Notes under the pieces: model-generated
What the model was told of the DNA's origin: nothing
Databases searched by the model: none
Seen by the model: the letters and a program-made list of their open reading frames with translations, nothing else
Origin: a virus
Taxonomy: Duplodnaviria; Heunggongvirae; Uroviricota; Caudoviricetes
Length of the DNA stretch: 64,000 nt
Reading direction: 5' to 3' (one strand)
Virus record (IMG/VR): IMGVR_UViG_3300025364_000002
Translations under genes and position numbers: made by a program
Shown: positions 1,402-54,892 of the stretch, piece by piece
Layout: every line of letters begins with the position of its first letter
Position numbering within the stretch: position 1 is the first letter of the stretch

Positions 1402-3309
1402 CTACACCGGATACTCTCGTATTTGAATAGATTTTGGCCACTCGACAGGATCATCACCTTTTTTACTGTTCAACTTCGACATGGTCAAGCCTGTCAATAT
1501 CGGCTTAGAACCGAGCTGTTTTACAAATACTTTAGTTGATGTACCATTGACGCATTTCACCACGTTGTCTGCCCAAATCCAATCAAAAGCTCGGGCTCCT
1601 GAACCGCTTTCCCCGCCCACAACAATCCAATCAAGGTCATTGACCCAAGGAGAAAAGTCAACGGGTGCTAAGGCTGGTTCGTAACTTGCCCAGCGTACTT
1701 TTGAAGTAGTTCTCAACAGAATTGGGATTCTTTTATCTGCTGTTGACTGGTCTTCACAAGACACTCCGAGCCAAACATTGTTCAGCGGCCACGTTTTGTC
1801 AACTTTATCAGTTTCTTTTCGACCGGTAAGCTTTCTAGCCTCATTGGCACAATATTCAGCTGGTGATGGGACTTGCAAGGCAACCCAATCAAACCAATCC
1901 TTTGCTCTTTCTGGTCTTTTTGTTAATACCTGAAAGGTATGCTTTTGTGCAGCTGCCATTACGCCAAAGACAGCAGCAATGTATTCATTAGCGACGCCAT
2001 GATGAAAGAGATCACTCATTGAATTAACGAACACCATTCTTGGCTTAGTCCAACGAATGGGGTCTGCAAGCTTGTCTGGTACAAGCATAATATTGCCATT
2101 CCACCTTGGACCCTTTTTGCCGACGGCAATTAACCCATGGTAAGGCTCTCCAGGCCCAGAAAACCTATGTGCGACCGTTTCCGCATAGCAATTATGCACA
2201 GCCATTCCTAATGCTATGAATGTACCAGAGGTGGTTTGTATATCTACCAAATTGCGTTTACCAATTCGTCTAATCCCATCAAATTTTATTGATTGTTTTG
2301 ATGGAAATCTTCGTCCATGAAAGTCAACCGTCTTTCTTTGTAATGCAGGTTGAATTGTAGATAAAAATTGAATTTTATCAGAAATGGTTCCCAGGAGTAT
2401 TTCACTTTTGTTTACTTGCGTAGAATATTGTTCATATTTGGATTTAAATCCCAAATCAGCAATTGCACGATGAGCAATGTTCAATAAATTGTTTTCTTTG
2501 GTCTGATTAAATCTTAGATTTTTGCCACTATAACATCCATCCATATCCAAAAAACCAGCAAGAAACCCAGCTTTCCAATTAAAGTCACTTTCTTCCCGTA
2601 TTATAATATTCCTAATTTTTAGGAGATTGTCCATAATCCGAGTTTCAATTTTCAACATGGGAAGGTTGGCTTCCCTGTAAAGAAATGCATCACCTCCATT
2701 AAAGGAGCGAATATTAATATTTTTACAGCCAAATTCGATCAATGCTTTTTTTAAGCGTTCAAGAATTGGTTTATCTGTTGCCAAAACTGCCACACGACAA
2801 TAAGATTGAAGAGTGCCATTTTTCCCAGAACCTTCAATTCTAATTGTGTCGTCGCCACCAACAACTCCAGCAATATATCCTGCCAAATAGGGTTTAGAAT
2901 TTATATCTGGCAACCACTTTGGAAACCCAATACTAGATATTTTTGTGTTTAAATTAATCTTTTCAGCTTTTCTCCAATATGGTCTATGTGGAGATAAAAA
3001 CAAATGGTCAACACTTGATACTATCGTATTAGAACCAAAATATAATTCTACCGCTTCTTTCCTGGTTTTCCAAGTTTTAACAACCGTAGCCTCTTCAAAA
3101 ACTCTATTTTGTCCAACTTTAGGATTGTCAGTAAAAGCAATAACTTTATCACCCTCTTTAATCTCGCCAATAGGCACCCAACTCATATCGGACATTAAAA
3201 CAGGCGTATCTGGGCCCAGGCAATTTTCGCAACCCTTGGAAACTCTAGAACAGCCTCTCAAAGGATTCCATGTGGCATCAGTCCACTGTATTCCGGTCTT
3301 GTTTCCCAT
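1402..3309 (-). CDS. DUF5131 / phage Gp37-Gp68 family protein (CX6CX2C motif) containing an intein
   Basis: WTDATWNPLRGCSRVSKGCEN|CYAE and MVFVNSMSDLFH, WLGVSCEDQ, WIVVGGESG motifs. Confidence 0.88.
   Translation of the reverse strand: MGNKTGIQWTDATWNPLRGCSRVSKGCENCLGPDTPVLMSDMSWVPIGEIKEGDKVIAFTDNPKVGQNRVFEEATVVKTWKTRKEAVELYFGSNTIVSSVDHLFLSPHRPYWRKAEKINLNTKISSIGFPKWLPDINSKPYLAGYIAGVVGGDDTIRIEGSGKNGTLQSYCRVAVLATDKPILERLKKALIEFGCKNINIRSFNGGDAFLYREANLPMLKIETRIMDNLLKIRNIIIREESDFNWKAGFLAGFLDMDGCYSGKNLRFNQTKENNLLNIAHRAIADLGFKSKYEQYSTQVNKSEILLGTISDKIQFLSTIQPALQRKTVDFHGRRFPSKQSIKFDGIRRIGKRNLVDIQTTSGTFIALGMAVHNCYAETVAHRFSGPGEPYHGLIAVGKKGPRWNGNIMLVPDKLADPIRWTKPRMVFVNSMSDLFHHGVANEYIAAVFGVMAAAQKHTFQVLTKRPERAKDWFDWVALQVPSPAEYCANEARKLTGRKETDKVDKTWPLNNVWLGVSCEDQSTADKRIPILLRTTSKVRWASYEPALAPVDFSPWVNDLDWIVVGGESGSGARAFDWIWADNVVKCVNGTSTKVFVKQLGSKPILTGLTMSKLNSKKGDDPVEWPKSIQIREYPV
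2191..3222 (-). mobile_element. intein with LAGLIDADG homing endonuclease (344 aa)
   Basis: Starts CLGPDTPV, ends AVHN before Cys+1; YLAGYIAGVVGGD and FLAGFLDMDG motifs. Confidence 0.92.
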
Positions 3310-5872: not shown

Positions 5873-5919
5873 ACGGCATTTTTAATAACTACATTCGAAC
5901 CTGTCTTTAGCTATTTTAG

Positions 5920-6039
5920 CTCCAGAGGAGGGATTCGAACCCCCGACTAATCAGCTATCTTTGAAACCATCGGATTCGCATTGCAACAAGCTTTATCCGA
6001 TTCCCACAACCGATCGCTCTACCATTGAGCTACTCTAGA
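5920..6039 (-). ncRNA. tRNA-Asn-like scaffold with ~47-nt insertion in the anticodon loop
   Basis: Perfect acceptor TCTAGAG/CTCTGGA, G73, normal D and T arms, stem ATCGG/CTGAT enclosing a hairpin insert. Confidence 0.8.
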
Positions 6040-6158: not shown

Positions 6159-7565
6159 CTATAAACATGGATTAACAATAATATCTTCAAGTCTTTCAAC
6201 CATAACCGCTGGGTCTGTAGAAATTAGATGAAAGGTAGCACAATCATCAAAATCTGTGTTGTTAACTGATGCCCCAAAGACTGTCAATGATTCTCCGTGC
6301 GTAAACGAATTACACATTTCCATTTCACGTACTTCTGACAAACCTCTTGTAGAACTTCTATATGTTTGCCCTCTTTCATCAGTAAACATTATCATAATGC
6401 GAATTGAACCTTCCCGCCAAGATAAACCTCTTCTGGTGGGTGAGAGCATATCAGCTATACCATCACCATTTGAATCAATACCGTGTTCAATTTCACCAGT
6501 TGCGCTTTCATAAACTGCATCCCAAGTTGGCTCCTGTGCACCACCATCAGCATCCAAACTAGATAGCCTACTATTAAAGCTAGTGAAATCAGAAAAATCA
6601 AGTTCTACAAATGCTCTTCTGTCTAATGCGCCTCGGCCAGAAATAAGAACCAATGCAAACCTAAATTCGGGATTTCCTGCATACAGTGCTGAAAAAGTTG
6701 TTGTTGCTTCACGAACAGCTGCAATTGTAGAAGACATTGAACCAGAAATATCGATCAAATAAAGAATGTCAAAACCATTTGGTTCTATTGTTATACACAC
6801 CCCATCTTCATAAGCACCATCAATGCATCCATCACAATCATCGTCGACCCTATTACAGGCAAGCAAACCAACTTCTGGCACCGGCGGAATTTCACCATCG
6901 CATTCAGACCAAGTTCCTCCGGTTTCACAAACTTGACGTCCTTTTCGACAAGGTGAGATAATCGAATCTATATTAGGCCCAGAATAGCACCATTGTGATA
7001 AAGGCCCTGTGGAATCACTATTTTCATCTACCTCACCATCACAATCATTGTCAATGTCATCACAATCTTCTGGAACGCAATTTAAAAAAGTACAAGAGCC
7101 TTCAATGCATGCAAATCCTCTTGGACACATATCATCAAATTCACAAATATCTACACAATAGCCATTGCCTGTAATGGAATCAGTGATACATTCTTGCTCA
7201 CCAGAACTTTCTTCATTGTTGCAGTCTTGAGTATTTTCGCATTCAGTAAAACGATCTGATCTGACGCAAGAACCCATACGGCAGTCTGCACCTTCACCAC
7301 ATGGTGGCCCGTTACCACATCTGCAAGAGCCATCTATGCATTGGTCAGAATCCATAATCGGACAAAAATTTCCACAACCCCCGCAATTTCTGAAATCAGT
7401 TCTTAGTCTAGCAAGATCATCACTTTCACACGGGGGTCCAGCATCCGTGTCTGTTATAGACATCAATCCAGAATCAGAGAGTGGCGGTATTAGTGGTATT
7501 CCTTCTTGGTTGGAACACGCAAACAAACCAATGCAAAACACACTTAAAACCGCTACTTTTTTCAT
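6159..7565 (-). CDS. Cys-rich lipoprotein with myxobacterial-type repeats and a C-terminal vWA domain
   Basis: Lipobox LFAC, TDFRNCGGCGNFC, CDDIDNDCDGEVDE repeats, LIDISGSMS MIDAS motif. Confidence 0.8.
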   Translation of the reverse strand: MKKVAVLSVFCIGLFACSNQEGIPLIPPLSDSGLMSITDTDAGPPCESDDLARLRTDFRNCGGCGNFCPIMDSDQCIDGSCRCGNGPPCGEGADCRMGSCVRSDRFTECENTQDCNNEESSGEQECITDSITGNGYCVDICEFDDMCPRGFACIEGSCTFLNCVPEDCDDIDNDCDGEVDENSDSTGPLSQWCYSGPNIDSIISPCRKGRQVCETGGTWSECDGEIPPVPEVGLLACNRVDDDCDGCIDGAYEDGVCITIEPNGFDILYLIDISGSMSSTIAAVREATTTFSALYAGNPEFRFALVLISGRGALDRRAFVELDFSDFTSFNSRLSSLDADGGAQEPTWDAVYESATGEIEHGIDSNGDGIADMLSPTRRGLSWREGSIRIMIMFTDERGQTYRSSTRGLSEVREMEMCNSFTHGESLTVFGASVNNTDFDDCATFHLISTDPAVMVERLEDIIVNPCL

Positions 7566-8584: not shown

Positions 8585-8665
8585 ACAAAGAACTCGGATT
8601 CGAACCGAGAATACCTTTACAGGCGGCGCAAGTTGCGAAGTGTATACCATTTCCACCATTCTTTG
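8585..8665 (-). ncRNA. tRNA-Leu-like RNA with collapsed anticodon loop
   Basis: Leu-type D arm, long variable arm, perfect acceptor and T arms, anticodon arm CGCA-ACT-TGCG. Confidence 0.7.
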
Positions 8666-22539: not shown

Positions 22540-22793
22540 AAAATTATTCAAATGAATTTCACAGAAATTACTAAGCATCATTGCCGTATCCTTGTAAGTA
22601 TGGGACTACAAAGAAAGAATAGATAGTTCACACCCTGCATTAGCACAATAACGCTTGTAAGTTTAAGCAAATCGTGGTCCACTATTTCAATCAAAAACAC
22701 AGATTGTTCTTCAAATGATTTTACATTGAGCACGCATCTAAGATACAGTTACAACTCAAACGTTCTCTGCTTGAGCATCTTTTTCTTGCTTAG

Positions 22794-22930
22794 TCGAGAA
22801 GGTAGGGATCGAACCTACTATCATCCGTTGGATACGGAAGTCAAGAACATACATGTTCACACAATTATGAGTCATGTAGCACTTGTGGCATCCTTCACTG
22901 GGACCGCTTTTCCAGTAAGCTATCTTCTCG
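22794..22930 (-). ncRNA. 137-nt tRNA-scaffold RNA with several anticodon-like hairpins
   Basis: Acceptor CGAGAAG/CTTCTCG, D arm and T arm enclose hairpins with loops CAGTGAA, CTCATAA, TGTA and TATCCAA. Confidence 0.8.
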
Positions 22931-24042: not shown

Positions 24043-25908
24043 CTATTCTTCAAGCCTTTTTTCAAAGGCCATACAAGCTTCTCCGTAATCCTTGAGAAGT
24101 TTGTCAAAATCTTCAAAACTAATATATGCACGACCATTTTTGCCCCAGCTGTTTCCAGACCAAACAGCTTTACCATTTCGTCTCACAAAAACAATCTGAT
24201 TTGGAACACTGACACAGTAAACCTTTCCCTTGTATTGTTCTTTCTGTGGCACCCAACCACAACCAGGACTTGGTGTCCTTTGTATTTCTTTAATACCAAC
24301 TCTATATTCAACAAAACGAGTTGTTCCTGATTTGTTTTTTCGACCTACTCTATCAACAAAAGAAACATCGCCACAACGTCCTGTTTTTAAGCACAACTCT
24401 TGAAAATCGTCAGCCAATTTTTTTGAGGAAGTGTAATATGTTCTTTTAATGCTTCCGTTTTTTCCTTCTTTAATAGAGCCATCGCCCAACATCAGTGCCT
24501 GATACAATACCTCTAATTTTGCGGCCGAAAGCGCTTTAATGTTTGCTAGAATGTACTTTTCATGTGATTTTCCGAAATCAATCAAATACTCGTACAATTC
24601 TTTGGAGGCGCAGGTCCATGTGCCACTTTTTTCATTTCTACAAAAATTGAAAGGAAGCCTGCGCAAACATTGTTCAATTTTTTCAATATTTGCCCTACTT
24701 TTAGTTTGCGATATTGAGGTAATAAATTGCTGTTCGACAACTGCCTTGTTATACGTGGTCGTTTCGACGAATTCCTTTTCGTCTTGACCGAGTAAATACC
24801 TACCAGTTGTTACGCTTCGTCCAGGTTTGGTTATGAATCGTTCATGTTTTACACGTTTTATTCGAGGTTTGCGTATAAAGGTATTTTTACTGCAATGCCC
24901 TTCAGAAAGAAAATACCCGAGAAATTCTAACCAGTCCTCTGTCGGTACAACCTTCTTTCCCACTCTAAAGGTGGGAATGTCCTCGCCCTGCCAAAGTGCG
25001 TCTTTTTTCATGTGAAAAAACTTAATTGGTATTTTTCTGGCTTCCTCTAATTGCCAAACTTCTGAGCTTCTTGGCTTGTAATAAATCCTATGATTTGGTG
25101 TAATAGCCAAATCAACGTCACGTGATTTGTAGTTTCACATTTCTCCGACGTAAGGATAGCAGTGATGCTCACTAGGAATTTGGAATTCAAGTTGCTCAGT
25201 TTGACTGTTTAGAGTAGCAACTTTGTCGGACACACATAAATTTCTAAAAAGCTTCCATCCACTTTCTGTAAGTATTTCCGTTTGATCATCGAAACAACGT
25301 CCCCAAGAATTCTTAATCCTGAAGCGCTGCTTTTTTACATTAACACCAGTGATAACATATGCATGGCCACCAGCTTTATGACCCGTCGCTTTAATAAGTC
25401 CATTTTTATCGGGATAAAACATATCTGAATACCACCAAGTGCCTACAACCATTGGACCAAGGTGCAACACCGTTTGGACAACTTCATCTAAGGTAGATGC
25501 CCATCTAAACTCTGAAACAACACCTAATTGTCGAAGAATTTTGGCACCTGCTCTAACGCTCGTACCATCATAATCCTCACCTACCCATTCGTCAATTTTT
25601 TGAGCTTCGTTGTAAATGCTCGCCGGGTTGAAAAGAGGCTGATGTTTTTCATGACGAGATTCATTAAGGTAGGAAGGATCAAAGTCACGATTCTTGTAGA
25701 AATGCGTAATTGGACCATCTTCCAACCAATGCACCCAAGAAAATGCAACGCAATGTGGCAAATAACCTTGGTCACCCCACCAAGCAGAATCCCACCAGTA
25801 ACGATATTCTCTCTCAGGGGCAGAACCTTTGGGAGGAAGTGCTTTGGAAATTGGATAATTTTTGTCCCGACTATCGGGAATGTGAACACGACCTAATGCA
25901 TATTTCAT
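24043..25908 (-). CDS. papain-like (C1A) cysteine peptidase with an intein interrupted by one in-frame TGA
   Basis: DQG..PHCVAFS, GGHAY, KNSWGR|SWGKNGRAYISF; ORFs 25135..25965 and 24043..25110 are in the same frame. Confidence 0.85.
24151..25296 (-). mobile_element. intein with LAGLIDADG domain, TGA at 25135-25137
   Basis: Starts CFDDQTEILTESGW, ends CVSVPNQIVFVRRNGKAVWSGN before Ser+1; FLGYFLSEG and ALMLGDG motifs. Confidence 0.9.
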
Positions 25909-29711: not shown

Positions 29712-29726
29712 TGTGAATTTCCTTAG

Positions 29727-29798
29727 CATCCCCGGAGAGACTCGAACTCCCAACCACCTGGTTCGAAGCCAGGTGCTCTTCCTTTGAGCTACGGGGAC
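29727..29798 (-). tRNA. tRNA-Arg(TCG)
   Basis: Canonical, G-CTA end. Confidence 0.93.
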
Positions 29799-29973: not shown

Positions 29974-30381
29974 TCAGAGTAATTTTTCTTTAATGCAGTT
30001 AAGTAAATCTTTTCCTTGTTGCTCAACTTCTTTCGAAAGAACTTTAGAATTTTCTGGTCGATGTCTGTGATCGAACCTTTTTGTTAGTTCCCAATAATAG
30101 TCCCTATCTTTCGGAGCATGTTGCTTTTGATATTGTTGTATTGTTTGATACTGTTGCATTATCTTCACGAGATCTACAGTAGCCTCATTCGTTATTGACT
30201 TCGGAACTAAATTGATAATTGCGTCTTGTACAAATTTGGCAGCAGATGAAGCACTATCGGCAGCAGCGGGTATTTCTAAAGTTGTTGGTATCACTTCCTC
30301 ATTCCCATTTTCGTCAACTTCAATAACTGCCGTCAAGATACGAATCTTGTATGTCTTGCCGTTTTTACTCTTTTTCTTCAT
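29974..30381 (-). CDS. hypothetical protein
   Basis: 135-aa ORF. Confidence 0.65.
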   Translation of the reverse strand: MKKKSKNGKTYKIRILTAVIEVDENGNEEVIPTTLEIPAAADSASSAAKFVQDAIINLVPKSITNEATVDLVKIMQQYQTIQQYQKQHAPKDRDYYWELTKRFDHRHRPENSKVLSKEVEQQGKDLLNCIKEKLL

Positions 30382-30814
30382 ACGTTTTTTCCATCATCAC
30401 TTTAATAGGCTGTTCCTCAGATATAACTTCATCCTTGGTGTGTCTAACAGTACCATCAGAAAGAATTATATACACAACACCTGGCTTTTTCCACATGTAC
30501 TTGATTGTTTCCCAGGTGCCAGAACCTTTTTGTAAAAGTTTGTCAGTTGGAGGCAATCCAATCAAAACATCAGAAACTTCTACCAAATACCGATTTCTAG
30601 CCATATGCCCTAAGTTGTATGGGGTTACGCCCGTAGAAGCTCCCAGGTCCGCCGCTAAAGCTCTAAACATTTTGTCGGCACCTTCGCCATCATTGTGAAT
30701 ACATAACAGCTTGTGGTTTTTTAGAAAATGAACAAGAAGCTCTTTGAGTTTTTCGATTTGAGCTTCTGTAAAACCTTCTCGTCTGCCAGTAAAACCTACC
30801 ACTAATCCTTCCAT
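30365..30814 (-). CDS. SLOG superfamily (DprA/YspA-like) protein
   Basis: VGFTGRREG, EGAD, MARNRYLV, GSGTWETIKY. Confidence 0.72.
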   Translation of the reverse strand: MEGLVVGFTGRREGFTEAQIEKLKELLVHFLKNHKLLCIHNDGEGADKMFRALAADLGASTGVTPYNLGHMARNRYLVEVSDVLIGLPPTDKLLQKGSGTWETIKYMWKKPGVVYIILSDGTVRHTKDEVISEEQPIKVMMEKTYEEKE

Positions 30815-30844: not shown

Positions 30845-30969
30845 CGGTATCCACAGGAATCGAACCTGTCTTGTGAGTTGCCTCGTCAGGCACCGGTAGC
30901 GGTCCCACAATGTCTCCCAGCACGGCCGTAGCCATGAAAGCGCAATGTTAGCGCTTATTGACGAATACC
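30845..30969 (-). ncRNA. 125-nt tRNA-ended RNA with a multi-hairpin core
   Basis: Acceptor GGTATTC/GGATACC-G-CTA and canonical T arm; core has four hairpins and no D arm or anticodon. Confidence 0.8.
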
Positions 30970-30974
30970 ATATT

Positions 30975-31068
30975 TGGTAGGGCTAGAGGGGCTCGAACCC
31001 CCATCTCAGGTTTATCAGACCTTAAGCCGGTTATAAACCGGTTGCATTCACCATTATGCTATAGCCCC
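30975..31068 (-). tRNA. tRNA-Ile(TAT) with a second Ile(GAT)-like stem-loop as variable arm
   Basis: ACCGG-TTTATAA-CCGGC followed by AGGT-CTGATAA-ACCT; CCA encoded. Confidence 0.85.
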
Positions 31069-31072
31069 AAAT

Positions 31073-31220
31073 TTTGTCTGTAAAGGTACCGTTACCTTCA
31101 ATACCTACCCGCAATGGTAGGCCCCACGGGAACTTCCATCGCACGTATTATTCAAACCCAGCGTTTAGGCTGGTTGAATGAATAAACCCTTGAGTTCAGT
31201 CATTTTCGGTTACAGACAAA
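31073..31220 (-). ncRNA. structured ncRNA with 11-bp closing stem
   Basis: TTTGTCTGTAA/TTACAGACAAA enclosing at least four hairpins. Confidence 0.65.
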
Positions 31221-31242
31221 GCTCGTAATCCATCGAGCTTAG

Positions 31243-31316
31243 TGGAGTCATCGGGATTCGAGCCCGATTCTTCGGTTTGCAAGACCGAGATTTTACCCAA
31301 CATAAACTATGACCCC
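31243..31316 (-). tRNA. tRNA-Ala(TGC)
   Basis: G3-U70, loop CTTGCAA. Confidence 0.9.
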
Positions 31317-33470: not shown

Positions 33471-33479
33471 TTATGTTAG

Positions 33480-33553
33480 TCAGAGTGATAGGATTCGAAC
33501 CTACAGCCTCCCGGATCCAAACCGGGTACTCTTCCAGATTGAGCTACACTCTG
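33480..33553 (-). tRNA. tRNA-Pro(TGG)
   Basis: Canonical. Confidence 0.94.
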
Positions 33554-34365: not shown

Positions 34366-34373
34366 AAACTTAG

Positions 34374-34445
34374 CAGGGAGAGAAGGACTTCCACCTTCAA
34401 CTTCCGGCTCAATACGCCGGGCTTTTGTCGTTAAGCTATCTCCCT
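34374..34445 (-). tRNA. atypical tRNA, anticodon ATT
   Basis: All four stems pair perfectly; loop GTATTGA, T loop TGGAAGT, D loop lacks GG. Confidence 0.55.
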
Positions 34446-40902: not shown

Positions 40903-40978
40903 ACAACAACAGTTGGATTCGAACCAACAACCTGGACTTTCATAGAGCCCCGCTCTACCATTGCAGCTATGTGTTGTA
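40903..40978 (-). tRNA. atypical tRNA, anticodon ATG
   Basis: Loop CTATGAA, good T arm, bulged acceptor. Confidence 0.55.
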
Positions 40979-42149: not shown

Positions 42150-42156
42150 ATGTTAG

Positions 42157-42228
42157 CGGGGCAGGTTGGATTCGAACCAACACTTTCTAGCTTCAGCTAG
42201 ACGTGCTACCAATTAACACTACCGCCCC
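42157..42228 (-). tRNA. atypical tRNA with 6-nt anticodon loop (CTGAAG)
   Basis: All stems perfect, G73, loop one nt short. Confidence 0.6.
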
Positions 42229-49148: not shown

Positions 49149-49829
49149 TTACTTTAATCCTGTTATTTTACCACGATAATAATCTTTGTAGGATATTTTC
49201 TTACCAGTAATGTGACAACTTACAATGTTGTGCTTTACCTGGATGGTGCGAATCTTATCTCCACGCATTCCGGAGCCGACCTGTTCTTGACGAATTTGCT
49301 CACGCTTTTTCGAATATATTTTTTTCTTTTCACTTAAGAGCTTTGCTTTTAAGATTGCAAGAGCATTTTCTCGGTTAGTTTTTTGACTTTTTGAACTCTC
49401 AGCTCTTACAGTAACACCAGATGGTAGATGTGTTAACTGAACAGCGGTTGCATTCTTGTTTCGATGTTGGCCACCAGGCCCACTTCCGCAAGTAAACGAT
49501 TCTTTTAAATCCTTAGGATCTATATGAATTTCCTGCTGCTTTGCCTCAGGTAACACAGCTACCGTAATAGTGCTGGTATGTACTCGCCCACGTTTTTCGG
49601 TTGGTGGTACACGTTGCCAACGCAAGCCACCAGCTTCACTTTCAAAGAATCTTATTACTCCTTTTCCAGAAACCTTAAAAACAACAATATTTTCGTTAAT
49701 TGTTATTTCTTCTATAGAAAAATTCATAAGATTACAAGCTTTCCCATAAATTCCAAATTGTACGTGTATCAAATCACGGGCATCGGCACCACCCTCTCCG
49801 GGCCTTATTTCTACAATTATACTTTCCAT
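49149..49829 (-). CDS. short class I peptide chain release factor (RF1-like, PrfH-sized)
   Basis: EIRPGEGG, QRVPPTEKRGRVHTST, GPGGQHRNK, KIRT. Confidence 0.88.
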   Translation of the reverse strand: MESIIVEIRPGEGGADARDLIHVQFGIYGKACNLMNFSIEEITINENIVVFKVSGKGVIRFFESEAGGLRWQRVPPTEKRGRVHTSTITVAVLPEAKQQEIHIDPKDLKESFTCGSGPGGQHRNKNATAVQLTHLPSGVTVRAESSKSQKTNRENALAILKAKLLSEKKKIYSKKREQIRQEQVGSGMRGDKIRTIQVKHNIVSCHITGKKISYKDYYRGKITGLK

Positions 49830-52142: not shown

Positions 52143-53318
52143 TCACTTTACAAGTTTTGTAAACAGCTCAGTCTCACGTCGTTCAATTTCTTGTCCGATT
52201 TCTCGTCCCTTTAAACCCTGAGCCATCAACTCTTGTCCACTCACGGATGGTTCGTATTTAATAAATGCATCTACCAAATTCATGTCCGGCTCACCACTAA
52301 GTTGAGCAAATTCCTTCAAGTCCTCAGGAGAAAGTCGTGTCGGCTTCCACAATTTTTTCAAATGATAAGCATTCTCGGGAGAAAGGTTTTGAAAAAGATT
52401 AAGAAAAGCAATTTGCCTAGTTTCAACTACACTGTATTTTAAGTTGTTTAACTTTTGAGACAAAACTTTAGGATTGTTATCTCGTGTAAGAAGAGCAAGT
52501 TGCACTGGGATGTTCTTTGTTTCTTCATACCACGTGTTTAGCTTTAACCCAGGTAAAATCTTTTCCCATAAATTGAAAGAGTCATAAAGACGATGTAAGG
52601 CCCTGACGGATTGGGCACTCTTAATGCTTTTCAAGAATTCATCTCTGATTCTTTCAGGCGACACACCCTCTAAGGAATTATTTGCCCTAATGGCGTCTTC
52701 GGTCGGTTTATCAAGCCCAGCACCCATACGAGCTGCAAATCTAATAGCTCGCAAAATTCTCAGTCTGTCCTCATCAAATCTTTCTGAGGGATCTCCAACA
52801 GCTCTAACCACACCTTTTTCTAGATCTTCAAGACCGCCTACCAAGTCCACAACTTCTTGACTGTCGATGTCATAAAAAAGTGCGTTAATTGTAAGATCAC
52901 GACGTTTCACATCATTTTCAATAGTAGTAAACTCAACTGCATCGGGTCGTCGACCCACCAAAGACTTAAATTCTCGATATTCTTCTGGAAAAAGTTGTGC
53001 GGCTTTATTTTTCCAATTAGCCGACTCTGTCAACTTGTTTGTGGTTGTTGGGGTAAATGTGATAAAGATACCATCTGTAGGATCACCCTCCACGACACTG
53101 ATACTATCAGTGCTGTACTCATCGAAAATTTTATAGTGTTCATCCCACCAATCTTCTTCGGGTGTACCTGCTTCATATCGACATCCGAGTGTATGAGTTT
53201 CAATGAACCAGCCATTTACAATAACAGTATCACCACAAGTTCTTGCAGTCTTCAATTTAGCCAGAAGGTCATTTCCAGCCTTTTGAACGGTTGCAGGTAA
53301 ATCTTCATACTTGGTCAT
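52143..53318 (-). CDS. CCA-adding tRNA nucleotidyltransferase, C-terminal part (motifs B-E) with ~120-aa extra N-terminus
   Basis: GRRPD, DVKRRDLTINAL, GGLEDL, RFDEDRLRILRAIRF, VSPERIRDEF. Confidence 0.85.
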   Translation of the reverse strand: MTKYEDLPATVQKAGNDLLAKLKTARTCGDTVIVNGWFIETHTLGCRYEAGTPEEDWWDEHYKIFDEYSTDSISVVEGDPTDGIFITFTPTTTNKLTESANWKNKAAQLFPEEYREFKSLVGRRPDAVEFTTIENDVKRRDLTINALFYDIDSQEVVDLVGGLEDLEKGVVRAVGDPSERFDEDRLRILRAIRFAARMGAGLDKPTEDAIRANNSLEGVSPERIRDEFLKSIKSAQSVRALHRLYDSFNLWEKILPGLKLNTWYEETKNIPVQLALLTRDNNPKVLSQKLNNLKYSVVETRQIAFLNLFQNLSPENAYHLKKLWKPTRLSPEDLKEFAQLSGEPDMNLVDAFIKYEPSVSGQELMAQGLKGREIGQEIERRETELFTKLVK

Positions 53319-54039
53319 CAACATATCTCCACATAAAACCACCAGCTTGTTTCCTGTACTTTTTGTTTCTGGCAGCACAGCTAATGTTTCTAATTCCCAA
53401 GTCTTTTTGAGCTTTATCAACACTTTCCCAAATTTGGATCATTTCACCGTCTAAAGTCATTTGCATTACTTTTTTCTTGTTCCAAGCTGATTTTCCTCTA
53501 CGAGCTTTAGAAATCTTCTGCTTTTGTGCTTCTGTACAAGGTTTTCCAAGTCTTCTGGTGTTACCTATAAGTGACTTGGAAATATTTTTCTTGTGTACAG
53601 AAGTTAATTTTCGACCCTTATGCTGTCTAGCAACTTGTGCTATTTTTTGCTTCGCCTTCTCACTGTGCTTATAACCGTGAGATCCAACCTCTCCTCCAGA
53701 AGTGACATTTGTTAAATCACAACCTTTGTCTTTGAAATATTGAATCCAATACCGCTCTCGTTCTGTCAACAAACTTTCTTCACATTTTTCAATGGCAATT
53801 ATCCTCAGTTTGGAGAGCAATCCTTTTCTCTCCAATAATCGCAACCAATTATTCTTATGCGAGTTATTCTTGTTCCTTCGATGCTTATGCTTAGAGAGTC
53901 TAACGTTTAGCTTTGATACAGTTTTACCAACATATCTGACCTCATTAGTCATTGGGCATACGAGCGAGTAGACGCAGCCTTTTCTTCCAGTTTTCTGGCT
54001 GTTTTTCTTGGATGAATTTAACGAAACTTTCATAATCAT
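53305..54039 (-). mobile_element. GIY-YIG homing endonuclease (NUMOD3/NUMOD1) splitting the CCA enzyme gene
   Basis: GCVYSL...VRYVGKT, HSEKAKQKI, KQAGGFMWRY. Confidence 0.9.
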
Positions 54040-54892
54040 CTTTTAAATATGAATCTTCACGGAAAGTTGCTATTTCATATTCATTGCCCTCAGGGGTTAT
54101 AACATTGATAACACCAAATGCCTTCCCAACTTCCATTGTTTTGTACTCTGGGAATTTCCTGATTATTTCAAGAATGCGATTAGGATTAGCATCTGTGGCC
54201 ACATCATAATCCTTAGGTTCTTTACCCAGCAATGCATCCCGTACTGCTCCACCTACAACGTAAAGTTGATGTCCAGCTTTTGAAAAGATTTGTGATAATC
54301 TTTGAATGTCAGCAGGTATTTTCATATTAAAGGGCTTTCGCACTGATTCAACTAAGAAATTGAAATTTTCATTTAAAATTTCATCAATAAGCCATTTAAC
54401 GCTTTCGTTTTTAGCCTCAGTTTCTTGGTTGTCTTTTTTTGGCACCTGATCCAGTGGCGAAGGTTGCTTTTTCTGCAAATATTTTTTAAACTTGCGCTCC
54501 CGTTTTTTGCGAGGTACAGTGTAATGTTTTTTTAACAACTGATCAATGGTAGATTGGTACCAGCGCTTTGCCTGTCCAGCAAGTTTGTTGTCATCTACAA
54601 AATGATCAATATAAAGACGCACTCCGTGCGTATCACCGGATTGACGTGGGTCCATATCTGGATCCATTTTAAGCAAGCCTGACAACTGGTCGAGTTTCTT
54701 GGTTGGAGAGTATCCTCCCCTGACTGATGACACGGAAAACTTAGCAAGTTTAGTCAAATCATCATGAATTTCGGGAAAATTTTTCTTCATGTGATTAACG
54801 TAATCTTGCGATAGCTCCTCACGGTGTTCGAGCATGACTTCATCAAGCACTTCCTCAATCAAATATACAAGGTCTTTCTTTTTCATGGACAT
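53945..54892 (-). CDS. CCA-adding tRNA nucleotidyltransferase, N-terminal part (motif A) with ~170-aa N-terminal extension
   Basis: LYVVGGAVRDALLGKEPKDYDVATDA, EIATFRED. Confidence 0.88.
   Translation of the reverse strand: MSMKKKDLVYLIEEVLDEVMLEHREELSQDYVNHMKKNFPEIHDDLTKLAKFSVSSVRGGYSPTKKLDQLSGLLKMDPDMDPRQSGDTHGVRLYIDHFVDDNKLAGQAKRWYQSTIDQLLKKHYTVPRKKRERKFKKYLQKKQPSPLDQVPKKDNQETEAKNESVKWLIDEILNENFNFLVESVRKPFNMKIPADIQRLSQIFSKAGHQLYVVGGAVRDALLGKEPKDYDVATDANPNRILEIIRKFPEYKTMEVGKAFGVINVITPEGNEYEIATFREDSYLKDDYESFVKFIQEKQPENWKKRLRLLARMPND

Follow-up and report, generated by a model that had tools for sequence, protein, structure and literature searches.

The mascRNA (RF01684) and the tRNA-like RNAs of murine gammaherpesvirus 68 do not decode: they are released by RNase P and RNase Z and are given a CCA end. 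Bacterial RNase P, RNase Z, and CCA-adding enzymes accept minihelices made of an acceptor and a T arm. In phages, small stable tRNA-like RNAs from the tRNA cluster of T4 have been known for fifty years without a function; in particular, the biological role of species 1 RNA (rnaC) is unknown (PMC3014915). The tRNAs of Lak megaphages contain "enigmatic introns," with a conserved inserted sequence (10.1101/356790).

Here we describe a 125-nt RNA with the ends of a tRNA, encoded in a stretch of viral DNA of 64,000 nt (the window). With a probability of roughly 70%, we think that it is a real RNA that is processed like a tRNA and does not decode. We are similarly confident that it represents a small family of tRNA-derived RNAs, not catalogued before, that occurs in a clade of uncultured huge phages. 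These conclusions are drawn from sequence comparisons.

The RNA and its locus

The RNA gene belongs to the genome of an uncultured huge phage (the same protein is found on a 461-kb contig). DNA of the window is present in metagenomes from hypersaline lakes, and a 97% relative is present in microbial-mat metagenomes. ARAGORN identifies 52 tRNA genes in the window, all but one of them (51/52) on the minus strand. The window also codes for a T4-type large terminase, an asparagine synthase, a CCA-adding enzyme, and a release-factor-like protein, as well as for a class II synthetase (Asp/Lys/Asn family) that is taken here as AsnRS. About 30 nt separate the 125-nt RNA from the start codon of the SLOG/YAcAr-like protein downstream (Table 1). 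A promoter and terminator scan gave nothing specific.

Several other features of the window were noted. A shortened class I release factor of 226 amino acids, with partial PCRF and RF-1 domains, is encoded at 49149-49829 (minus strand). A DUF5131 protein (1402-3309, minus strand) has a central LAGLIDADG-like segment that may be an intein, and a second ORF with a LAGLIDADG-like domain is at 24043-25110 (minus strand). The gene for tRNA-His(GUG) (5919-6039, minus strand; 50.5 bits with Rfam) carries, near position 37/38, a structured anticodon-loop insert of 48-51 nt; just upstream of this tRNA gene is the gene for a 468-amino-acid protein with a C-terminal VWA domain (6159-7565). At 22793-22930 (minus strand), ARAGORN with introns allowed reports a tRNA-Trp-like frame with a 67-nt insert in the anticodon loop and good acceptor, D, and T arms; the build of this RNA differs from that of the 125-nt RNA. 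Among the odd tRNA calls (42156-42228, 8585-8665, 40905-40977, and 34373-34445, all on the minus strand) are one with a two-letter anticodon in a 6-nt loop and ones with A34 (Ser ACU, His AUG, and Asn AUU). Finally, in the structured spacer between tRNA-Ala and tRNA-Ile, the 97% mat relative has coupled changes at 31163-31168 (G>C, T>A, T>A, and G>C) that are palindromic, as if a loop or stem had been swapped; these are from one contig at a depth of 2.

Table 1. Features of the 125-nt RNA and its surroundings, in window coordinates
Feature	Position	Strand	Remarks
tRNA-shaped RNA, 125 nt	30845..30969	-	G1 = 30969; discriminator G = 30845
Acceptor 5' strand GGUAUUC	30963..30969	-	pairs with 30846-30852; one U-G pair
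Linker GUCAAU	30957..30962	-	GUC invariant; putative pairing with GAC at 30912-30914
Hairpin 1: 6-bp stem, loop UAACAUU	30938..30956	-	3/6 pairs doubly changed; 100% of cells paired
Hairpin 2: 6 bp, UACG tetraloop	30921..30936	-	dispensable; 6/6 pairs doubly changed
Single-stranded 10-nt joiner CUGGGAGACA	30911..30920	-	carries conserved GG(R)GA(Y)A, D-loop-like
Long arm: 7-bp stem UUGUGGG/CUCACAA and junction of two 4-bp hairpins	30871..30910	-	4/7 stem pairs doubly changed
Branch hairpin a, ACCG-CUAC-CGGU	30892..30903	-	dispensable
Branch hairpin b, GCCU-GACG-AGGC, then AA	30878..30891	-	GACG loop invariant (5/5)
T arm ACAGG-UUCGAUU-CCUGU	30853..30869	-	canonical T loop; 2/5 pairs doubly changed
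Acceptor 3' strand GGAUACC	30846..30852	-	pairs with 5' strand
3' trailer CUAA	30841..30844	-	same signal behind ~28 ordinary window tRNA genes
Upstream neighbor tRNA-Ile(UAU), encoded CCA	30975..31068	-	3' end 5 nt before G1 of the RNA
Downstream neighbor, 149-aa SLOG/YAcAr-like protein	30365..30814	-	context; route to relatives; no demonstrated partner role
CCA-adding enzyme genes	52143-54892	-	phage-encoded

An earlier, sequence-only reading of this DNA had described an acceptor, a G73 followed by CTA, a T arm, two hairpins, and a three-way junction at 30845-30969, and we find all of these parts on the minus strand. The three-way junction is present, but its details needed correction: the closing stem has 7 bp instead of 5, and the first branch is ACCG/CGGU instead of ACC/GGT. 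The unconstrained minimum free energy fold is exactly this structure (-48.4 kcal/mol, z = -3.6), and just 1 of 200 shuffled sequences folds as stably as the native RNA.

The RNA has several of the features of a tRNA, namely, a 7-bp acceptor stacked on a 5-bp T stem, a UUCRANY loop, and a discriminator. The T arm abuts the acceptor directly, and a single nucleotide separates it from the long arm, which occupies the place of the anticodon arm. The claim that there is no D arm has to be qualified: the GG(R)GA(Y)A of the joiner resembles the 3' half of a D loop and its stem, and a 3-bp helix is possible. The description of the core as entirely different from a tRNA was therefore slightly overstated, as a vestige of the D loop (GG) is retained.

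By eye, we also considered a hammerhead core: CUGACGA is present, but GAAA and suitable helices are not, and we rejected this candidate.

Known families, relatives, and covariation

The sequence-only reading had named an Rfam search and a covariation analysis as checks. In the Rfam search, the 125-nt RNA did not match any known family. With Rfam 15 at gathering thresholds, the window yields tRNAs only, none of which is at 30845-30969, and the tRNA model (RF00005, gathering threshold 29 bits) does not match the RNA even at E <= 10. When the homologs from L019 and L141 (two related contigs; see below) were searched alone, there were no matches to tRNA, tRNA-Sec, or tmRNA. ARAGORN with default settings reports no tRNA at the locus. 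The Y RNA models do not match the RNA, and there is no TROVE-domain protein among the window proteins tested. A match to the mascRNA model falls on the neighboring tRNA-Ile and not on the 125-nt RNA.

At E <= 10, the matches on the RNA are to cyano_tmRNA (15.7 bits, with gathering at 70) and tmRNA_permuted (10.9 bits, with gathering at 47). These weak matches, the acceptor and T arm, and the long helix in place of an anticodon arm might suggest a minimal rescue RNA of the tmRNA type, pared down to the tRNA-like domain much as the mitochondrial tmRNAs of jakobids are reduced. However, both matches are partial, covering only the T arm and its flank, and are far under the gathering thresholds. 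The RNA, at 125 nt, is too short for a tmRNA, as the sequence-only reading had noted; it has neither a tag frame nor a pseudoknot. It also lacks G3-U70, again as noted: the pair is U3-A70 in the window RNA and is U-A or C-G across the family. A gene for SmpB was not found in the window, and ARAGORN's tmRNA search was empty. We give the rescue RNA almost no credence.

We found relatives of the RNA via neighboring proteins. Homologs of the SLOG-like protein led to contigs L019 and L013/L014. In relatives, the SLOG-like gene is followed by a gene for a truncated TrpRS-like protein, whose homologs led to L139 and L141/L142. From the window RNA alone, we built a covariance model (R1) that matches L019:763-870 (86.9 bits) and L013:1314-1451 (42 bits), and a three-sequence model (R2) matches L141:1418-1533 (85.1 bits) and L139:5430-5545 (84.8 bits). 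The family thus comprises five sequences from four lineages: the window RNA and four copies in related uncultured huge phages. Pairwise identity over shared columns is 63-76%.

The covariation across these sequences is extensive. In our main five-sequence alignment, which was fitted to the covariance model, 98.2% of the cells are standard pairs, and 21 of the 39 pairs are doubly changed. As controls, none of 500 shuffles reached these values, and when the 3' partners were slid by 1-3 columns, only 1-4 doubly changed pairs remained. An alignment that is independent of the model agrees: MAFFT with RNAalifold, which recovered the 7-bp stem, the T arm, the acceptor, and hairpins 1, 2, and b, gave 16 doubly changed pairs. 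In the main alignment, all seven helices contain one or more doubly changed pairs; compensatory changes keep the helices across the five sequences. The RNA is conserved and matches no known family, and neither of the outcomes that the sequence-only reading had said would refute it was observed. Furthermore, the combination of paired substitutions with indels of 17 nt and about 9 nt implies that the overlapping ORFs are not protein coding.

Other searches for relatives were negative. Copies of the RNA are absent from the fetched stretches of L015-L017 and L021-L024, which keep neighboring genes, from the region upstream in L001 (the first relative found via a neighboring protein), and from the relatives derived from the terminase. 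Because the fetched stretches of several related contigs lack the RNA, it is not essential to the clade. Pattern scans of IMG/VR (T arm with acceptor, joiner with T loop, tRNA-Ile, joiner with stem, and GACG hairpin) identified no member; the matches in two scans (five in one, many in the other) are ordinary tRNAs. A single pattern scan of JGI metagenomes gave three chance matches and no relative, and blastn against a phage collection gave no match to the RNA. The contigs of the 97% relative reach no further than the 3' 46-57 nt of the RNA, and in this part the sole change is an A at the discriminator, at a depth of 2.

We rejected a weak match of 123 nt in L015-L017 as a family member, as it looks like a different object. 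This element (L015:7222-7344, L016:221-343, and L017:5603-5725) has tRNA-type ends and a second, internal T-arm-like hairpin, GGGUUCAAAUCCC; it may be a gene that resembles tRNA-Ile(UAU) and carries a structured extension at its 5' end.

The truncated TrpRS-like proteins that led to some of the relatives (L019:2800-3450, L013:2220-2780, L139:6001-6624, and L141:1989-2612) are about 190-220 amino acids long; they keep the KMSKS motif and lack the N-terminal catalytic part (profile positions before about 88). At E < 1e-20, these proteins have more than 220 relatives, many of them on contigs of 200-670 kb, so such proteins are widespread in huge phages; the window has none.

The family has strictly conserved parts and optional parts. 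In the acceptor, G1-C72 and G2-C71 are invariant and positions 3, 4, and 7 are doubly changed in relatives; pair 3-70 is U-A in three members and C-G in two, and never G-U. The discriminator G is kept in all five copies (the A mentioned above is in one variant contig of depth 2). The GUC at positions 8-10 and the joiner nucleotides G53, G54, G56, A57, and A59 are identical in 5/5 sequences, and the T loop is invariant or nearly so. The loop of hairpin 1 keeps a UA..AUU frame in 6 or 7 nt, and AA follows hairpin b in four of the five copies, with L013 being rearranged there. Hairpin 2 is absent from L019, and in L013 and L141 the same hairpin has a wholly different sequence. In place of hairpin a, L141 and L139 have AAA and L013 has a larger branch. 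This modular anatomy, with an invariant acceptor, T loop, GG joiner, and GACG hairpin alongside optional hairpins, offers a guide to targets for mutation.

Two of the conserved single-stranded parts might interact. G8-U9-C10 can pair with G56-A57-C58 in 5/5 sequences, with only one-sided change; we hypothesize that this helix might be a remnant of the D stem, with one or two hairpins taken up into its loop. By analogy with tRNA, the joiner would be the partner of the T loop. An alternative D stem, 10-13/59-62, fits L019, but we rejected it because in L141 positions 60-62 covary with 97-99, in the 7-bp stem.

The RNA evolves faster (59-71% identity) than do true tRNAs in the arrays that contain it (72-96%), it is missing from some relatives, and duplicates abound in the tRNA arrays of huge phages. 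All of this would be expected of a decaying tRNA pseudogene, that is, a dead duplicate that has acquired insertions and has no function. However, at 63-76% identity, all of the helices are intact, with 98% of the cells paired and 21 pairs doubly changed. Also, the unpaired GUC, GG-GA, GACG, and AA and the T loop are invariant or nearly invariant, and a neutral relic would not retain these. We therefore consider a pseudogene to be highly improbable.

The alignment also bears on the possibility that this is the precursor of a decoding tRNA, such as tRNA-Met(CAU), from which splicing of an intervening sequence would give a normal tRNA. With introns allowed and a threshold of 80%, ARAGORN does report a tRNA-Met(CAU) here, with a 37-nt insert and a 21-nt variable region. 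The same window contains the tRNA-His with its 48-51-nt insert and the tRNA-shaped gene with its 67-nt insert, and introns in megaphage tRNAs have been published (10.1101/356790). However, the anticodon stem of this tRNA-Met takes up the 3' strand of hairpin 1, which has three doubly changed pairs of its own. The proposed 3' anticodon strand sits in hairpin a, which is missing from L141 and L139. The CAU is lost in L019, where the module is deleted, and is CAC in L013. Furthermore, G37 would be beside the CAU, and the D arm would be without GG. More broadly, there is no single contiguous deletion by which every member would acquire a 7-nt loop with U33. We consider an interrupted decoding tRNA to be extremely improbable.

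A conserved 7-nt anticodon loop with U33 is absent from the five members, which bears out the earlier claim that the RNA has no anticodon. The loops are instead of 4 nt (GACG, UACG, GCCG, or CUAC) or are the 6-7-nt UA..AUU loop, which has an A in the place of U33.

Processing and possible roles

The sequence-only reading had suggested that RNase P and the CCA-adding enzyme mature the RNA; this seems probable given its position, its 3' flank, and the CCA-adding enzyme of the phage. A tRNA or tRNA-like gene precedes each of the five copies, its 3' end lying 3-8 nt before the RNA begins. The window has tRNA-Ile in this place, L019 has tRNA-Asp, L013 and L139 have tRNA-Arg(CCG), and L141 has an element with a T arm. 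At the 3' end, G is followed by CUAA in the window and by CUA in L019 and L013, and L141 and L139 have an encoded G-CCA. This encoded CCA suggests a tRNA-type mature 3' end, as it would otherwise be hard to explain. The strictly kept part of the RNA is the acceptor/T-arm minihelix.

Among the tRNAs that ARAGORN finds in the window, 18 have a CCA encoded in the gene, with A as the usual next base, and in about 28, N73 is followed by CUAA. The genes at 29726-29798, 31242-31316, and 33479-33553 are examples of these two classes of 3' ends, and CUAA, which is one base off CCA, looks like a conserved 3' processing signal. The CCA-adding enzyme itself is apparently split: part of the head is encoded at 53945-54892, and the rest of the head and the RNA-binding part are encoded at 52143-53423. 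An ORF for a homing endonuclease (GIY-YIG/NUMOD3; 53305-54039) is situated between these parts and overlaps each of them.

We propose that the RNA would be cotranscribed with the tRNA array. RNase P would cut at G1, the 3' end would be trimmed to the discriminator, and the CCA would be added or kept. The product would be a stable RNA of 108-138 nt that accumulates. With no anticodon loop, it would not read codons. As its most likely mode of action, the elbow formed by its acceptor and T arm would let tRNA-handling proteins accept it. The GACG hairpin and the GG joiner may give it a specific partner. The RNA would thus act as a mimic of tRNA (a decoy, a competitor, or a carrier) and not in translation itself.

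The location of the RNA also raises the possibility of a purely structural element: a tRNA-shaped cut site or stabilizing scaffold that parts the tRNA precursor from the downstream mRNA and has no function in trans. In 5/5 genomes, the RNA sits where a run of tRNAs gives way to a block of protein genes, and in the window it is about 30 nt from a start codon. However, the tRNA-type gene 3-8 nt upstream would already supply a cut, and in L019, L141, and L139, the next called gene after the RNA is on the opposite strand. Nor would a mere processing signal need the conserved GACG hairpin, the AA bulge, or the loop of hairpin 1. A scaffold seems quite unlikely to us. If such RNAs were only processing scaffolds, they would be natural counterparts of the engineered "tRNA scaffold" for recombinant RNAs.

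Any particular downstream role that we might assign to the RNA is doubtful. Gene order alone links it to the SLOG-like and TrpRS-like neighbors, and we rejected a functional link to either: the window lacks a TrpRS-like gene at the locus, L141 and L139 lack a SLOG-like gene, and L021 has both and no RNA.

One specific role would be as an aminoacyl carrier outside of decoding, charged by a synthetase that does not require an anticodon. SerRS, for example, reads tRNA-Ser without touching the anticodon. Several aspects of the RNA resemble what SerRS-style recognition might use: G1-C72 and G2-C71 are invariant, G73 is conserved, the hairpin in the anticodon position is dispensable, and the long arm comes one nucleotide before the T arm, like the variable arm of a class II tRNA. 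In relatives, truncated TrpRS-like and AlaRS-like genes are near the RNA. However, this argument is by analogy, and the arm is longer than known variable arms and is branched. Also, the phage of the window has lost the TrpRS-like gene at the locus yet keeps the RNA, and one variant contig has A73. A carrier of this kind is very unlikely.

More speculatively, the RNA could belong to a broad and essentially undescribed class of phage tRNA mimics that are CCA-ended and anticodon-less and that act in trans as decoys or competitors by displaying a tRNA elbow and acceptor end, with the GACG hairpin providing specificity; we think it unlikely that this is correct. In such a class, the targets of a decoy or competitor might be host enzymes that attack or modify tRNAs, or else a tRNA-handling enzyme of the phage, although this too is a guess that we would not expect to hold. 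If these RNAs are decoys or carriers that make use of the tRNA machinery of the host, large phages would have a further means of taking over or protecting translation.

Comparison with known systems

The YrlA RNAs (PMC4201824) are also noncoding RNAs with a module that mimics tRNA, and they too occur in phages. However, their topology is opposite: the two ends of YrlA lie in the Ro60-binding stem and its acceptor mimic is closed by a loop, whereas the ends of the window RNA form the acceptor and its far end is closed.

The biogenesis that we propose for the 125-nt RNA is the same as that of mascRNA and the gammaherpesvirus RNAs. These differ from it in being eukaryotic, in being about 60-75 nt long, and in keeping the cloverleaf, and they have no relation to it in sequence.

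The tRNA-like domain of tmRNA (clan CL00001; PMC3985003) shares with the window RNA an acceptor and a T arm, the lack of an anticodon, and a GG-containing strand that resembles a D loop. In both, a long helix leaves the body. tmRNA is processed by RNase P and has a CCA end, as would probably be the case for the window RNA. On the other hand, tmRNA has G3-U70, an mRNA-like domain, and pseudoknots, and it is 260-400 nt long, versus about 125 nt here.

The intron-containing tRNAs of Lak phages are, as here, oversized genes of the tRNA type in huge phages. Once the insert is removed, the Lak tRNAs have a cloverleaf and an anticodon, whereas the window RNA yields these under no single deletion.

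The closest analogue is T4 rnaC (NC_000866, 70908-71046). At 139 nt, rnaC likewise lies within a cluster of phage tRNAs. As in the window RNA, there is a canonical T arm and, directly after it, a 3' strand of the acceptor type that is paired with the 5' end; the D and anticodon arms give way to hairpins. The core of rnaC differs, being one long composite hairpin and a 10-bp hairpin; its acceptor has two U-U mismatches; and the host and the phage lineage differ as well. The similarity is one of design, with no demonstrable descent: when the T4 tRNA region was searched with R2 and with filters off, rnaC scored 21 bits, which is the level of ordinary tRNAs (18.5 bits for T4 tRNA-Ser and 23-26 bits for unrelated phage tRNAs). 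The RNA family is new to Rfam, and the design itself is known but poorly understood. The RNA shows that the combination of tRNA ends with a core that is not a tRNA's has an independent origin in huge phages of hypersaline lakes and microbial mats, where selection maintains it across lineages whose neighboring proteins are only about 67-72% identical.
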